This document shows positions 51,331-57,564 of a stretch of 64,000 nt of DNA, in pieces; positions within the stretch are counted from its first letter, which is position 1, and every line of letters begins with the position of its first letter. Origin of the DNA: an uncultured Actinomycetes bacterium (lineage in GTDB: Bacteria > Actinomycetota > Thermoleophilia > RBG-16-64-13); assembly GCA_963784835.1 (NCBI GenBank), contig CAWASM010000007.1, positions 14,694 through 78,693 on the forward strand. Reading direction: 5' to 3'. The translations under genes were made by a program, and so were the position numbers. The notes under the pieces are model-generated. The model made no database searches and was not told the origin of the DNA. It saw only the letters and a list, made by a program, of their open reading frames with translations.

Positions 51331-54251
51331 TCAAAGCGCTGTTGACACAAGTTCCGAACCGACGTTGAACCGTTCCCGGAAGGCCGATTGAAGGCGCCGA
51401 TCGGCGGGGTCGGATATGACCACGGGCGAACGGGTGCGACGAGCTTCAGCCACCTGGGGCACCTCGGCGTCGGTGAAGCACGAACCTGCGGCCTCGGAGG
51501 TCGGGTGGACGAATTCGAGGCTCCAGCAGGCGCCAGAAAGAAGCATGACTCCACCTGAGTCGGCCGCAAGGGCACGAGTGGCGCGGTCGAGGACCCTACG
51601 CATTATCTCGGACAGCACCAAGGTCGAGGCTATGGCGGCATTCACCTCGTTAAGAGCAGTGCTCAGTCTGCTGGTTTCCTGCATCCGCGTCATGGCGCGC
51701 GTGAGCTCGTCGACGTCGACGAAGCTGAGCACTGCTCCCTCTATGCGTTTGCCGGCCGTCCTGTACGGTCTCACTCTCACCGAGAAGAAACGCCCGTCTT
51801 CGGTCTGCACGTCGCGGGAGGCCGGAGTGAGCGACGAGAGGGCATCGCGCAGGAATTGGTCGAGATCGGGGATGGATACTCTGAGGGCGATGTCGGTGAT
51901 CGGGCGTCCGACGTCGGATGGGATCATATGCAGTATCTCTTCGGTGCCGGGGGTGAACCGCCGGATGCGAAGATTGTCGTCCAGTATCACGATGGGAAGG
52001 TTCACGCTGGCGAGAATGTTGGAGATGTCGTCAAGGGCAGCGCCCAGCTGGGCGTTGCGTTGCTGCAGTTCGTCGTTGACGGTCGTCAGCTCTTCGTTTA
52101 CGGACTGGAGCTCCTCTTTGGCGGTCTCCAGCTCCTCGTTGGTGCTTTGCAACTCCTCGTTTGTCGATTGCAGCTCCTCGTAAGAGGCTCGGACCTCCTC
52201 CAGGCTCGTATCCTTTTCGTGGAGGACCTCCTGCACGTGCTCCCGGGCCGCCTCGAGCTCCTCGCGCAACACCGCTACTTCGGAGAGTTCCGCCTGCGCG
52301 GTCTCTGCAGTCCTCTCGGCTTGTGGCACCTTCTGCACGCTTGAGTCGCTCTTCTCTCGAAAGACGACGACGAAGTAGGTGCGTCTATCGGAGGCCCTAA
52401 ACGGCATCACTTCGAGATCCAGCCCTGCCCACCCCTGGTCGATCCTCACTCGCACGTTCTCTTTGCGGACGGACGCAAAGGTCTCGCGGGCCGTCTCGAG
52501 CGCCTTGCGCAGGTCGTGCGCCAGCCCTTCGCGGGCCAGCAGGAAGAGATCGAAGGAGGCCTTACCCGAGTGGTGTTCAAGATAGGCGGCGGTCGAGCCT
52601 CGGAAGGCGATGACTTCCATGTCTTCGTTGACGAGGACGCTCGAGGAGGCATACGCGGACGCCACAGCCCGATCGGCTTCGCGCTGGGCGTCGAACGAGT
52701 CAAGGCTGGTGCCCACCTCCCCCTCGGGCGCGGTTTGGACGGGAGTGTCGGTCACACGGCCGGCAGACGGTCTGGAGAAGACGATGGGCTGCTCTGCCGG
52801 AGCGGGCTGCTTCTTGTAGGCATGATGAGTCTTGTCGACGAGCCGAAACAGATTCGCCTGCCGGGCGATCGTCTCCGAACGGCCCAAGAGAAGGAACCCG
52901 TCGAGGCGTAACGCATAATGAAAGATCTTTACCGCTCGCTCCTGCAGGGTCCGCTCGAAATAGATCAGCAAGTTTCGGCAGCTGATGAAATCGAGATTCG
53001 AGAAGGGGGGATCGCGGGTGACGTCATGCCGGGCATAGGTGCAGAGGTGGCGCACATTCTCGTTGACACGGTAGCCCCCGTTCTCCGGGACGAAGAAACG
53101 AGCGAGCCGTTCAGGAGAGACCTCAGAGACGATCTCCGCCGGGTAGTAGCCCGCCCGAGCAATCGCGATGTCACGCTCGTTGATGTCGGTTGCAAAGATG
53201 CGGGTAGGCGGAAGGGGCCCATTGGCGGACTCAAGGAGAGCAATGGCCACACTGTACGCCTCTTCCCGGTGGAACAGCCGGCGACCCAGAACCGCAGTCC
53301 CTCCTCTCTCGCCTCTCGCCCGAGTATCTCGGGGAAGACCTCCTCCTTCAGGAAGTCAAAGGTCTCCGGATCGCGGAAGAACTCGGTGACCCCGATGAGG
53401 AGCTCGTGGTAGAGCGCTTCGACCTCGCCCGGTTCCTTTCTCGCGTAACTCAGATAGTCCTCAAGGTTATCTAGTTTGTGAACCAACATCCGGCGGGCGA
53501 GACGGCGCCTGAAGGTGGCGTGCTTGTAGCCACTGAAGTCTTGGCCGCTGACCTGGCGGAGAAGGAGAAACAGGTGGCCAAGAAGGTCTTCCTCGTCTGA
53601 GCCCTGCGGCCTGGTCCCTGGCTCGGCCCTCATGTGCGGATGGCGGGCAATCCTAAGTAATTCGTGGGCGATGCCCTTGGGGGGAAGAACGAAATCAACC
53701 GCGCCCGTCTCGTGGGCGTGCCGCGGCATTTCCGGATAACTCGCAGATTCGGGTTCTTGGGCGAAGGTGACTCCTCCCACGGCCCTGATCGCCACTAGGC
53801 CGCTCGACCCGTCGGAGCCCGTCCCTGAAAGAACGACACCGATAGCTCTCTGCTTGAGATCCTTGGCCAGCAGACGAAAGAAGTGGTCGATGGGCAAGTG
53901 GGCCGCCCCTGGATCCTTATCTCGGGGAACAAGCCGCAGGGTACCGCCCGCCACGGCGAGGTCGGCGGACCCGGGCATCACATAGACATGCCCAGGCTCC
54001 AAGCGAATGCCTTCCAGGGCTTCAAGGACGGGCATGCTCGTGGAACGGCCAAGTATCTCGGCCAGAAAGCTCTTCGTGCTTTCGCTCAGGTGCTGGATCA
54101 CAACAAACGCCATGCCGGTATCGCCCGACAGGCCGCCGAACAACTCTCGAAGAGCCTCGAGCCCCCCTGCGGATGCTCCGATGGCAACTATGGGGAACGC
54201 TCCCAGAGCCGACTTTCTTCTGTGGACAGGCTTGTCGGGGGTGGCGGTCAT
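51331..54251 (-). CDS. CheB methylesterase-CheR methyltransferase-PAS-coiled-coil-PAS-GAF fusion, frameshift near 53255, C-terminus cut at the IS3 end
   Basis: CheB: FPIVAIGASAGGLEAL...VVIQH...GVVLSGTGSDGS. CheR: TEFFRD...LRFWVAGCSTG / EEAYSVAI..., ISCRNLLIYF. The Glu/Leu heptad region is at 52000-52330. The partial GAF ends 3 nt from IS3. Confidence 0.85.
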
Positions 54252-54580
54252 AGTCGAGGTGACAACCGAGACGTGTGGTCCTGACTCAAGGTCCCTCCTC
54301 TGGCATCCAGGTCGCCCAGCTACTTGACCCCTACTACTACCCGAACTTAGCCCTGATTATCCCCTTGAGACTGCTGGCTCTCAAGTGCGCGGGTCTGCGG
54401 CTCCGTGACGAGCTGACCCCATGCGGTGGAAGTGGATACAAGCGGGCCGACGGCAATGTGCCCCCGGGCACCGTTTGATTGGGCGCACCGTCGGGGATGC
54501 TCAAAACTAAGGAGGCAGCTTCGCTACGACCGAACCTGCGACCTCTGAGGACGAACTCGACGAGCAGACAAGGAGTCATC

Positions 54581-55384
54581 ATGCTCCGAAAAGCCGAAGC
54601 GTTATACAAGTACACATTGGGTGCCGTAGATGGAGAGATCGGAAAGGTCAAGGACTTCTACTTCGACGACCGGACTTGGACCGTTCGCTATCTCGTGGCG
54701 GATACGGGAAGCTGGCTCGAAGAAAGGCTGGTGCTTATCTCTCCCTATGCGCTGGTCTCCGTCGATGAAGAGCGCGAGATCATCACTACGAACCTGACAA
54801 GAAAGCAGATCGAGAACAGCCCGCCGGCGGATTCCGATAAACCGGTATCACGCCAGTTCGAGGCCCTCTACTATGAGTACTATGGGTGGCCGGCATATTG
54901 GTACGGCCCGTATGCGTGGGGAGCGAACCCTCCCCGCGCCGTCCGCGAAAGAATCAGCGCAGGATGAGGAGACGGCCTGGGACAGCCATCTGCGCAGTGT
55001 GCGGGAGGTGGAAGGATATGGAGTCGGGGCTCGGACGGAGATATCGGCCACATCGCCGAGTTCGTCATCGACGATAAGGACTGGTCGATCCGCTACATGG
55101 TGGTGGACACGCGAAACTGGTGGCCTGGCAAGCACGTGCTGATGTCGCCGCAGTGGATAGAACGAGTGAGCTGGGATGATCGGAAAGTCTATGTCGACCT
55201 GGCCCGCGACACGATCAAGGATGCTCCCGAATACCCGCGCGATTCGGTTATCACCCGGGAGTACGAGATAGAGCTCTTTCTCCACTACAGCCGGGAGGGC
55301 TATTGGGCCCAAGCTGACCGCCCCTCGGATCCGGCGGATGGGGTCCCGCCGGATGAAGGCACGTTACACAGGAGAGAGGGATAG
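54581..55384 (+). CDS. tandem PRC-barrel domain protein (two frameshifts, 54950-55060)
   Basis: ATG 54581 follows AAGGAG. The first barrel is YTLGAVDGEIGKVKDFYFDDRTWTVRYLVADTGSW. The second is GDIGHIAEFVIDDKDWSIRYMVVDTRNWWPGKHVL. Confidence 0.8.
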
Positions 55385-55387
55385 ATA

Positions 55388-56540
55388 GTGGACTCACTCG
55401 ACAAGGACTACGCAGCGGGGCTCTTCCGGGGCTGTGAACCCCCCTGCCTCTCGCTCTACCAGCCGACTCATCGGCACCGTCCGGAAAACCAGCAGGATCC
55501 GATCCGGTTCGGGAACCTCGTGAAGGTACTAGAGGAATCGCTGCTGCAGAAGTATCCGAAGCGTGAGATCCAGACGCTCTTGGACCCCGTTCCTGGCATT
55601 GGCGGAAGACCGCGACTTCTGGGAGCATACCCTTGACGGACTGGCAGTGCTGGGGCGCAGAGGCGTGTTTCGAGTCTACAGGCTCCAGCGGCCGGTTGCC
55701 GAGTTGGCCGTCGTGGCCGATAGCTTCCACACGAAGCCTCTGCTGCGCATGCTTCAGTCGGCCGACCGCTACCAAGTCCTCGGCCTGAGCCGACAGGAGA
55801 TCAAGCTCTTCGAGGGTAACCGTGACTCCTTGGATGAGATCGAGCCGGCCCCCGGTGTCCCGCGGACGATCACCGAGGCGCTGGGGGGGGAATTGACCGA
55901 GCCACACCAGACCGTCGCCTCATACGGCGGCGTCGGCGGGTCGCACTCGGCCATGCACCATGGCCACGGTGGGAAGGAGTCTGAGGTGGACATCGACGCG
56001 GAACGCTTCTTCCGCGCCGTCGACCGTGGGATCCTGGAGCACCACTCCCGGCCATCGGCCCTTCCGCTGATCTTGGCGACGTTGCCGGAACATCGTCAGC
56101 TGTTCCACCAAGTCAGCCATAACCCGTTCCTGATGGACGAAGGCATCGATATCTACCCGGACGCCCTGCCTAGCGACGAACTCCGCCAGCGGGCCTGGCA
56201 GGTCATCGAGCCTCACTACCTGGAACGGCTGGACGCGCTGATCGAGGAGTTCGGCAGAGCAAAGGCCAAGGATCTCGGCGAGGAAGATGTGGCGCGCGTC
56301 GCCAAAGCGGTCGTTGCCGGGCGGGTCGCGACCCTGCTCATCGAAGCCGACCGCGAGATTCCCGGCCGGATCGACGCTGCGACCGGCGACATCGAGTTTG
56401 GGGACTTGGCGGACCCGGAGGTTGATGAGGTGCTCGACGACCTGGGGGAGTTGACCCTGAAGATGGGCGGACAGGTCGTAGTCGTCCCCACCGAGCGGAT
56501 GCCGACCAAGACGGGAATAGCCGCGATCTACCGCTACTAA
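55388..56540 (+). CDS. eRF1/Pelota-like protein (bacterial baeRF-type), frameshift near 55600
   Basis: N-terminus: CLSLYQPTHRHRPENQQDPIRFGNL. Middle domain: HGHGGKESEVDIDAERFFRAVDRGI, compared with eRF1 HGRGGQS...R....F.rkV. C-terminus: AVVAGRVATLLIE. Confidence 0.65.
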
Positions 56541-56553
56541 AGAGGATAGGCAC

Positions 56554-56871
56554 ATGCAGATTCAGATCAACACCGACAGCAACATTGAAGGCGACAACGC
56601 GCTGGCTCAGCAGGTCGAAACCACGGTGAGGGAGACCCTAGACCACTTCAGCAAGCACATCACGCGGGTTGAAGTCCACCTCAGAGACGAGAACAGCGGC
56701 AGCAAGTCCGGCACTGAGGACAAGCGTTGCCTGCTGGAGGTCCGTCTCATCGACCACCAACCGATCGCGGTGAGCCATCATGCCTCTACCGTGGAGCAGG
56801 CCGTCGACGGTGCTGCTAAGAAAATGAAACGTTTGCTCGTCAGCACTCTCGGGCGGTTGAACAGCCGCTAG
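56554..56871 (+). CDS. short HPF/RaiA-family ribosome-associated protein
   Basis: MQIQINTDSNIEG.......VETTVRETLDHFSKHITRVEVHLRDENS......DKRCLLEVRL....PIAVSH.A.TVEQAVDGAAKKMKR matches the short S30AE family. Confidence 0.8.
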   Translation: MQIQINTDSNIEGDNALAQQVETTVRETLDHFSKHITRVEVHLRDENSGSKSGTEDKRCLLEVRLIDHQPIAVSHHASTVEQAVDGAAKKMKRLLVSTLGRLNSR

Positions 56872-56919
56872 TGTCCATCGGCTTTCGGGCGGCCTGTGGG
56901 TGCCGAATGGAGGGGCCTG

Positions 56920-57564
56920 ATGAAACATCGGTGCGTTGCCGTCGCGACCGCCCTGGCAGGCGCGGGGGCTGCCTACGTGCTTCTTGCGCGGCCCCGGCAT
57001 CTGCGCTGGGGCGCGACCGACCAGGAGTTCCGCGGGACTCTGCCCGGCGACGACCTCCTGGCGAACCCCGACCTGACCGCCACTCGCGCCATCACTGTTC
57101 GCGCCGCGACCGATGATGTCTGGCCGTGGCTCGCCCAACTGGGGCAGGGTCGAGGCGGATTCTACAGTTATGACTTCCTTGAGAACCTCGTCGGCTGCAA
57201 CATCCATAGCGCGGATGTCATCGTGCCCGAGTGGCAGGCACTCAAGGTCGGCGACCAGGTGAAGCTCCATCCGGACGGGCCGCTTGAAGTAGCCATCCTC
57301 GAGCCGGGGAGAGAACTTGTTCTTCGCGGCGGGGTTCCGATGGGGGACACCCCGCCTCCCTATGACTTCACTTGGGCCTTCGTGCTCCAAGAGCTGCCGG
57401 ACGGGGCGACCAGACTTCTGTCCAGAGAGCGATATGCGTACACGAAGTGGTGGACGCCGCTTCTCGTCGAGCCCGTTGAGGCGGTCAGTTTTGTGATGAG
57501 TCGAAAAATGCTCCGTGGCATCAGGGACCGGGCGGAAAGCGCCGCCGCGCGGCCGGTGCAGTAA
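56920..57564 (+). CDS. SRPBCC (START/polyketide-cyclase-like) family protein
   Basis: VWPWLAQLGQGRGGFYSYDFLEN is typical of SRPBCC proteins that carry an N-terminal TM segment. Confidence 0.65.
   Translation: MKHRCVAVATALAGAGAAYVLLARPRHLRWGATDQEFRGTLPGDDLLANPDLTATRAITVRAATDDVWPWLAQLGQGRGGFYSYDFLENLVGCNIHSADVIVPEWQALKVGDQVKLHPDGPLEVAILEPGRELVLRGGVPMGDTPPPYDFTWAFVLQELPDGATRLLSRERYAYTKWWTPLLVEPVEAVSFVMSRKMLRGIRDRAESAAARPVQ

Follow-up and report, generated by a model that had tools for sequence, protein, structure and literature searches.

A Balon-family gene and a short HPF gene behind a tandem PRC-barrel gene: a likely stress-induced ribosome-hibernation operon in an uncultured actinobacterium

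The locus and its three genes

The window analysed here is a stretch of 64,000 nucleotides from an uncultured actinobacterium of the class Thermoleophilia (assembly GCA_963784835.1, contig CAWASM010000007.1), and at positions 54581-56871 of its + strand lie three closely spaced genes that are the subject of this study. The first encodes a tandem PRC-barrel protein (54581-55384, ATG start at 54581; Pfam PF05239) and is separated by exactly 3 nt from a gene of baeRF family 3 (55388-56540, GTG start at 55388; PF18845 and NCBIfam NF052287), a family of the baeRF-1 clade that we place with the ribosome-hibernation factor Balon. After a gap of 13 nt follows a short gene of the HPF/RaiA type (56554-56871; PF02482), which is intact and encodes 105 amino acids. 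Homologous loci and contigs used for comparison carry L numbers.

An earlier note on this DNA, made from the letters of the sequence without database searches, had delimited the same three + strand genes, and both its coordinates and its gaps of 3 and 13 nt proved correct. The motifs that it singled out in the middle protein, SLYQPTHR, HGHGGKES...AERFFRAVD and AVVAGRVATLLIE, are all present, and its assignment of the products to a double PRC-barrel protein, an eRF1/Pelota-like baeRF protein and a short HPF is borne out by Pfam matches. The frameshifts that it flagged at about 54950-55060 and 55600 are likewise real in the sequence, and orthologues read straight through these positions.

The middle protein is a member of the Balon family

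Reading through the single frame break in the middle gene gives a protein of 383 amino acids, and intact proteins of the same size align with it from end to end (100% coverage) at 92% identity. The product of the gene matches PF18845 (baeRF_family3) with an E-value of 1.8e-51 and 175.3 bits, against a cut-off of 31.5, with weaker Pfam matches to baeRF families 6, 7, 8 and 11; more than 7000 homologues are found at E <= 1e-10. The NCBIfam model NF052287, named 'AOC03_06830 family ribosome hibernation factor', matches with an E-value of 1.9e-52. Even as a single sequence the protein retrieves from the PDB the Balon of Psychrobacter urativorans bound to a hibernating ribosome (8rd8_B, E 2e-06), and a profile of its family aligns with the same chain over residues 6-383 with an E-value of 4.7e-38, followed by Msmeg1130 Balon (5.7e-05), Pelota (0.087) and aRF1 (0.62). 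By sequence, the middle protein is thus a member of the Balon family, and not an equivalog of the Psychrobacter protein.

The structural comparison agrees. An intact orthologue with 90% identity, P0012, was modelled with AlphaFold2 (mean predicted local distance difference test score, pLDDT, 77.5; predicted template modelling score, pTM, 0.68), and the model has the three-domain aeRF1/Pelota-like fold that characterizes Balon and the baeRF-1 proteins. In a Foldseek search with this model, three Balon chains rank first (E 5.5e-23 to 2e-22; template modelling (TM) scores 0.60-0.64), followed by Msmeg1130 and Rv2629 and then by aRF1, eRF1, Pelota and Dom34. The eRF1-like fold on which the earlier note had made its proposal depend was therefore recovered, and the closest solved relatives are specifically hibernation factors.

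Two regions of the protein bear on its likely function. The loop at the position of the catalytic GGQ motif of release factors (YGGVGGSHSAMHHGHGGKESE; TEPHQTVASYGGVGGSHSAMHHGHGGKESE) contains no GGQ, is variable, and is disordered in the P0012 model, where residues 168-197 have pLDDT values below 50. An N-terminal block in the SLYQPTHR region, THRxxPxNxQDP (family form THRxHPxNQQDP), aligns with the THREHPANDQDP segment of Balon, and across 33 sequences its T, P, N, Q and D do not vary. In Balon, this region, which is that of the 'HP motif', is where the protein contacts the decoding centre (PMC10901736). Homology to the solved complexes suggests that the middle protein acts, like others of the Balon family, as a relative of aeRF1 without catalytic function, and its predicted function points to hibernation, by non-catalytic occupancy of the A site without a GGQ, and not to rescue of stalled ribosomes.

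Such a function has precedent. Burroughs and Aravind in 2019 defined the baeRF-1 clade, reported that its genes persistently share operons with HPF genes and predicted that its members occupy the A site non-catalytically (PMC6514570). The clade includes Balon, which was seen by cryo-electron microscopy in the A site with EF-Tu-GDP, alongside RaiA (Helena-Bueno et al., Nature 2024; PMC10901736). In the same study Msmeg1130 and Rv2629 were found to bind the ribosome in the same way as Balon, with translation inhibited about 15-fold, knockout of Balon led to poorer early recovery from long stationary phase, and RaiA was the most frequent neighbour of Balon genes (PMC10901736). The earlier note's statement that computational surveys are the sole source of knowledge on these families has thus been overtaken by the ribosome-bound structures of 2024, and its view that no experimental function is established by the inhibition assays and the knockout phenotype of the same year (PMC10901736).

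The short HPF is an additional copy

The product of the third gene matches PF02482 (Ribosomal_S30AE/HPF) with an E-value of 3.7e-10 and 40.8 bits (cut-off 23.7). Because its score against TIGR00741, 23.9 bits, falls below the cut-off of 40.9, we classify it by sequence as a divergent member of HPF/RaiA. At 105 amino acids it is of the short form that lacks the C-terminal dimerisation domain. Some 12 residues, mostly Gly, Ser, Lys and Asp, are inserted in it, and this insertion is shared with its best solved relative, the 'ribosomal subunit interface protein' of A. baumannii (7m4z_v, E 2e-14).

The genome also encodes a canonical long HPF, immediately upstream of secA on contig C1 (156339-156620, - strand; 194-amino-acid open frame; PF02482 E 6e-24). 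Since this canonical gene is present next to secA, the Balon-linked short HPF is an extra copy. A recent preprint reports that extra, non-canonical HPF copies often lie beside Balon, with the canonical long HPF in an operon of its own (10.1101/2025.11.04.686544). In some close relatives the Balon-linked HPF has decayed, and Balon is kept in all of them. In L044 (7090-7160) HPF is internally deleted, with only its last ~64 nt left directly after Balon, and in L128 (4508-4710) and L129 only the first part of HPF is recognisable, within an open reading frame (ORF) of 58 amino acids in L128.

Balon and HPF form the conserved unit

Linkage of the two genes was assessed in 80 Balon loci from species genomes (L048-L127). 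A short HPF, 47-84% identical to the one described here, lies no more than 131 nt downstream of Balon in 45 of them, and six of the remaining loci have too little downstream sequence for its presence to be judged. Across these 80 loci the Balon subtype is 60-82% identical, in more than a dozen phyla; carriers belong to the Actinomycetota, Gemmatimonadota, Cyanobacteriota, Verrucomicrobiota, Planctomycetota, Nitrospirota, Acidobacteriota, Chloroflexota and several proteobacterial classes. In the genus to which the present genome belongs, just 3 of 15 genomes have the family-3 gene. Where relatives carry the pair, their DNA becomes homologous 1-43 nt ahead of the Balon start and ceases to be so no more than 2 nt from the HPF stop; the genes that flank this block are unrelated in every relative compared.

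The sharp bounds of homology, the differing flanks, the many phyla involved and the patchy distribution in the genus together point to a precisely bounded two-gene cassette that has often been transferred horizontally. The conserved unit is the Balon-HPF pair. Among the cultured carriers of the subtype are Syntrophus buswellii, Thioalkalivibrio versutus and Synechococcus sp. CS-1330. For an accessory gene that moves horizontally, conservation of the Balon subtype is unusually tight.

The tandem PRC-barrel gene and its linkage to the pair

The first of the two pieces into which the PRC gene is split in the assembly matches PF05239 with an E-value of 9.7e-07 and 29.2 bits (cut-off 21.2), as compared to 41.1 bits for the intact orthologue in L101. 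Both halves of the gene align with intact members of about 254 amino acids and keep the nearly invariant residues. The tandem PRC family is very large, with at least 8000 proteins at E <= 1e-05, which appear in databases under names such as 'YrrD' and 'PRC-barrel domain-containing protein'. An AlphaFold2 model of an intact orthologue (P0121; pLDDT 80, pTM 0.80) shows two packed PRC barrels. A Foldseek search with it ranks highest the PRC-barrel heterodimer CdpB1/CdpB2 of archaea and the H subunit of the reaction centre. The CdpB proteins have a part in the division of archaeal cells, a role that nothing supports for the protein here. A link to the ribosome through the fold was sought and rejected: RimM, whose PRC barrel binds the head of the 30S subunit, is absent from the top 50 Foldseek matches of the PRC model.

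How often the PRC gene accompanies Balon and HPF depends on where one looks. Among 100 genus, family and class relatives, PRC lies beside the orthologous Balon at none of five loci in genus and family relatives, and Balon lies beside PRC at none of 19 PRC loci; within the 80 Balon loci, PRC is found within 4 kb of Balon at only two (L096 and L101). The relatives at first suggested that the arrangement is a one-off, an idea that was dropped when metagenome contigs were considered. Two short-read contigs, L130 and L131, carry the intact trio, with a PRC gene of 254 codons, a gap of 154 nt, a Balon gene encoding 383 amino acids and an HPF gene encoding 105. A scan of metagenomes seeded with PRC gave 84 PRC loci (L133-L216) with neighbours recorded within 3.5 kb, and Balon, short HPF or both lie beside PRC in 11 of these. 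The order PRC, Balon, HPF occurs in L168 and L170; PRC is followed by Balon after gaps of ~100 nt in L180 and L203, and by a remnant of the Balon N-terminus and then Balon in L211, as also in L101 of the Balon set; and in L163 and L186 PRC is followed directly by HPF (confirmed by Pfam), with gaps of ~45-130 nt. Same-strand gaps between PRC and Balon are ~83-150 nt in L130, L180, L203, L211 and L101. In a tree of the PRC proteins, one clade with 100/100 support has six of its nine members linked to Balon or HPF, and the linkage was gained or lost at least five times independently.

As chance predicts well under one such locus, the linkage is non-random and the association of PRC with Balon and HPF is real. 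The earlier note had made conserved linkage of the three genes a test of its proposal, and such linkage holds in part: the intact trios of L130 and L131 and the 11 of 84 PRC loci speak for it, whereas the 2 of 80 Balon loci and the empty counts in relatives (0 of 5 and 0 of 19) do not. In L101 (1437-2280), from a metagenome-assembled genome (MAG) of Candidatus Methylacidiphilales, a 49-codon remnant of the Balon N-terminus lies between PRC and Balon-HPF, together with a gene for a Holin-X/Phage_holin_3_6 membrane protein (PF07332) and a separate ORF of 96 amino acids; the layout looks like an insertion into, or a partial duplication of, an older PRC-Balon junction.

The other neighbours of PRC offer a context for the linkage. 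The commonest are a protein of ~396 amino acids (18 loci), which by its sequence is a putative acetate kinase, and phosphoketolase (13 loci); further common neighbours are BON-domain, YflT, GH15, transaldolase-like and glycogen-phosphorylase-like genes, so that the neighbourhoods look like a dormancy and energy-reserve gene set. Balon is itself flanked by similar genes, for phosphoketolase, BON-MscS, PPK2 and DUF2254. We give somewhat better than even chances to the view that the PRC gene has no direct role at the ribosome and belongs to a horizontally shuffled pool of dormancy and general-stress genes that cluster in islands with Balon and HPF. PRC occurs in very few of the Balon loci and in no orthologous Balon locus of the relatives, it lies beside phosphoketolase, the putative acetate kinase, BON, YflT and GH15 at least as often as beside Balon, and its model resembles CdpB1/B2 and the reaction-centre H subunit with RimM absent from the top 50 matches. 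The tight same-strand adjacency of PRC with Balon or with HPF in several lineages, and the well-supported clade in which six of nine members are linked, argue the other way. Membership of a shared stress pool is nevertheless the most economical reading of the linkage, and a direct role for PRC at the ribosome is possible but unsupported.

That the tandem PRC-barrel protein is a third, unrecognised component of Balon/HPF-type hibernation seems rather unlikely. Were it so, the protein may attach to the hibernating ribosome in the way that RimM uses its PRC barrel to bind the 30S head, or may instead bind Balon or HPF so as to load, stabilise or release them, and the repeated same-strand adjacency across several phyla would reflect a physical partnership. 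PRC barrels receive no mention in the main texts of PMC6514570, PMC10901736 and 10.1101/2025.11.04.686544, or in two supplements of PMC10901736. As a large, uncharacterised family with non-random linkage, the tandem PRC proteins are a cheap candidate for a role in ribosome dormancy. What is modestly new at this locus is that a double PRC-barrel gene recurs beside the Balon-HPF pair, as a minority linkage.

A probable deletion between PRC and Balon, and the candidate promoters

The narrow spacer between PRC and Balon seems to be a feature of this lineage. Homology with the PRC gene of L130 ends at window position 55336, and homology in the Balon block resumes at 55345; between these points L130 has 114 nt, made up of the PRC stop and intergenic DNA, as compared to 8 nt here. 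By this comparison the stop codon of PRC and the greater part of the DNA between PRC and Balon would have been lost in a deletion of ~106 nt. Because of the deletion, the PRC frame runs into the old Balon leader and ends 3 nt before the Balon start, and the last ~16 PRC codons together with the 3-nt spacer (55337-55387, + strand) are a remnant of that leader, including the ribosome-binding site.

A motif GTTTGA-N14-GGGGAT lies about 83-108 nt upstream of the PRC start here (54473-54498, + strand) and equally far from the PRC orthologues in L130 and L137; for the PRC genes of this lineage as a group its place is about 96-109 nt upstream. In L001, L002 and L043, where Balon-HPF occurs without PRC, the leader of Balon diverges except for a conserved motif GGTTC-N15-GGGTAT, ~82 nt ahead of the gene. 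About 0.6 matches to the promoter motif would be expected in shuffled upstream regions, and none is found on the reverse strand. Both motifs resemble general-stress promoters of the SigB/SigF type. The first is a candidate promoter of PRC and the second a candidate SigF/SigB-type promoter of the native Balon-HPF unit, in a leader that would have been lost here by the deletion. Because the deletion removed the PRC stop and the intergenic region with the native Balon leader, the three genes are probably co-transcribed from the SigB/SigF-like promoter upstream of PRC.

Other signals were sought in the interval 54000-57300. No Rfam family matches it at E <= 1; a sigma-70 scan of the interval gave no + strand site fit for the trio and a single match on the - strand; and no convincing intrinsic terminator was found in it after HPF. 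Directly upstream of the candidate PRC promoter is a perfect, GC-rich hairpin, GTGCCCCCGGGCAC (54458-54471), which could act as an operator or end transcription that arrives from upstream. In L001 and L002 a string resembling GGTTCGAATCC raised the suspicion of a tRNA or tmRNA after HPF, which was rejected, as ARAGORN found none.

Frame breaks: assembly error or decay

Two of the three genes are interrupted in the assembly. In the PRC gene the frame is lost near 54958 and regained near 55028, so that two breaks compensate within ~70 nt, and in the Balon gene one frame change near 55589 leaves the assembly without the intact open reading frame expected of a Balon or baeRF-1 gene. The orthologues are uninterrupted, PRC in L025, L026 and L130 and Balon as proteins of 383 amino acids. 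A further pair of indels in the Balon gene, +1 and -1 about 7 nt apart (55655-55663, + strand), turns the conserved LGARG into LGRRG and keeps the frame, a pattern also shown by the two compensating breaks of PRC. A programmed frameshift, by analogy with prfB, was considered for this release-factor-like gene and rejected, as five relatives lack the indel and encode uninterrupted 383-residue proteins.

Consensus errors in the assembly, rather than recent pseudogenisation, probably account for the frame breaks, with the genes intact in the organism, because the essential rpoB is also broken in the same assembly, the indels are unique to this genome and the ratio of nonsynonymous to synonymous substitution rates (dN/dS) is 0.15-0.4. 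The rpoB frame changes at C1 219780-219990 (- strand), between ...EIESHEL and LKFERSNQGTF..., at a site with no homopolymer; this break is itself evidence of indel errors in the assembly. All three Balon indels occur in this genome only among six aligned sequences, the other five being relatives without them. Against relatives, the four longer pieces (two of PRC, the long piece of Balon and the intact HPF) give dN/dS values of 0.14-0.29, and the longer pieces of the broken genes match the intact HPF, at 0.20-0.29; the short N-terminal piece of Balon, of 67 codons, gives noisier values of 0.16-0.55. Neither broken gene has lost the residues that are nearly invariant in its family. The assembly comprises 2.33 Mb in 8 contigs with a completeness by CheckM of only 58%, and its closest named relatives are long-contig MAGs. 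The genes rpoC and secA are intact, and gyrA, sought as a further frame control, was not found in this incomplete genome.

The alternative is that the module is decaying, with PRC and Balon true pseudogenes in an accessory region and only HPF functional, and to this we assign a minor but appreciable share of the probability. Three breaks in 2.3 kb are denser than the one in ~10 kb across rpoB, rpoC and secA, and with two of those genes intact the breaks are uneven across the genome. The region is rich in insertion sequences (IS), so that real decay would be possible; IS elements and truncated genes lie nearby, and parts of the module have decayed in other lineages, by internal deletion of HPF in L044 and by its truncation in L128 and L129. 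Just upstream, on the - strand, a CheB-CheR-PAS-GAF fusion gene (51331-54251) is also split into two overlapping ORFs, the break falling inside the SAM-binding domain of CheR, whose profile positions 2-44 and 49-193 are matched in separate ORFs. Decay, however, accounts poorly for a break in an essential gene of the same assembly, for two PRC breaks that compensate each other, for retention of the nearly invariant residues, for indels confined to this one genome, and for dN/dS values in the longer pieces like those of the intact HPF, with values up to 0.55 in the short Balon piece only. We thus retain assembly error as the probable explanation, and annotators would do better to read through these breaks than to call pseudogenes.

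A likely ribosome-hibernation operon

The families, folds and motifs of the three proteins and the linkage of their genes across many genomes are direct observations, and from them we consider it likely, with good confidence, that the locus is a stress-induced ribosome-hibernation operon. By homology to the solved complexes, the middle protein would act as a Balon-family factor, a non-catalytic aeRF1 relative, and the short HPF/RaiA protein would fill the 30S mRNA/tRNA channel of the ribosome that the middle protein occupies, so that together they would silence and protect 70S ribosomes during non-growth. The sequence context suggests that the tandem PRC-barrel protein, which recurs beside the pair, serves in dormancy or general stress, that the ~106-nt deletion probably placed all three genes under the SigB/SigF-like promoter upstream of PRC, and that the genes, their three frame breaks being probable consensus errors, would be intact in the organism.

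Several points weigh against this interpretation or parts of it. The score of the middle protein against NF052287, 179 bits, is well under the equivalog cut-off of 330, and its identity to Balon when the structures are aligned is no more than 21-22%; because of these two values, details such as the recruitment of EF-Tu may differ from Balon. In the N-terminal block, the residue before the conserved Pro is Arg here and not His. The promoter call is a consensus match only, and PRC linkage is missing from 78 of the 80 Balon loci.

The earlier note had proposed a pathway acting on stalled or hibernating ribosomes. The ribosome and hibernation stand, by homology to the solved complexes, and the rescue of stalled ribosomes does not, given that there is no GGQ. 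That the eRF1-like protein resolves stalled ribosomes, by catalysis or in the manner of Dom34, is a reading towards which the note's mention of stalled ribosomes leans, and it appears very improbable. Although the protein has the aeRF1/Pelota fold and rescue was weighed as one possibility for the baeRF-1 clade by Burroughs and Aravind (PMC6514570), the loop that would carry GGQ is variable and disordered, the nearest relatives of known structure act in hibernation and leave the peptidyl-transferase centre inert, and the linkage to HPF points to shutdown and not to rescue.

Comparison with known systems

The PRC-barrel protein can be compared with stand-alone PRC-barrel proteins of stress and dormancy and with the archaeal CdpB pair. 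With the cyanobacterial AvaK, which combines PRC with DUF2382 (PMC9804601), it has in common the PRC-barrel fold and an association with dormancy and desiccation gene sets, and with CdpB1/CdpB2 (8QZO) a two-barrel assembly. Its own architecture is different, with two barrels in one chain, a Tyr/Trp-rich linker and no DUF2382. The short HPF matches the non-canonical copies described beside Balon (10.1101/2025.11.04.686544) in its arrangement, with the canonical long HPF kept separately, and differs from them in the insertion of about 12 residues that is also present in 7m4z_v.

The pair as a whole corresponds to the baeRF-1 and operonic HPF system of PMC6514570, with the same Pfam families, the same baeRF-HPF neighbourhood and the same prediction of non-catalytic A-site occupancy. 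With Balon of P. urativorans (AOC03_06830; 8RD8, 8RDV and 8RDW), Msmeg1130 and Rv2629, the middle protein shares the three-domain aeRF1-like fold and the lack of GGQ and, apparently, of NIKS; its conserved N-terminal THRxxPxNxQDP block aligns with the corresponding segment of Balon. Like Balon, its gene adjoins a RaiA/HPF gene in a stress context. Unlike Balon, it belongs to a tight subtype of baeRF family 3, 60-82% identical across many phyla, lies behind a tandem PRC-barrel gene with which it is probably co-transcribed, and has a frame change in the assembly. The pairing of Balon with RaiA/HPF was known from the work of 2019 and 2024, and this locus is a further case of that hibernation system, an uncultured actinobacterial example of a mechanism that was recognised only in 2024.

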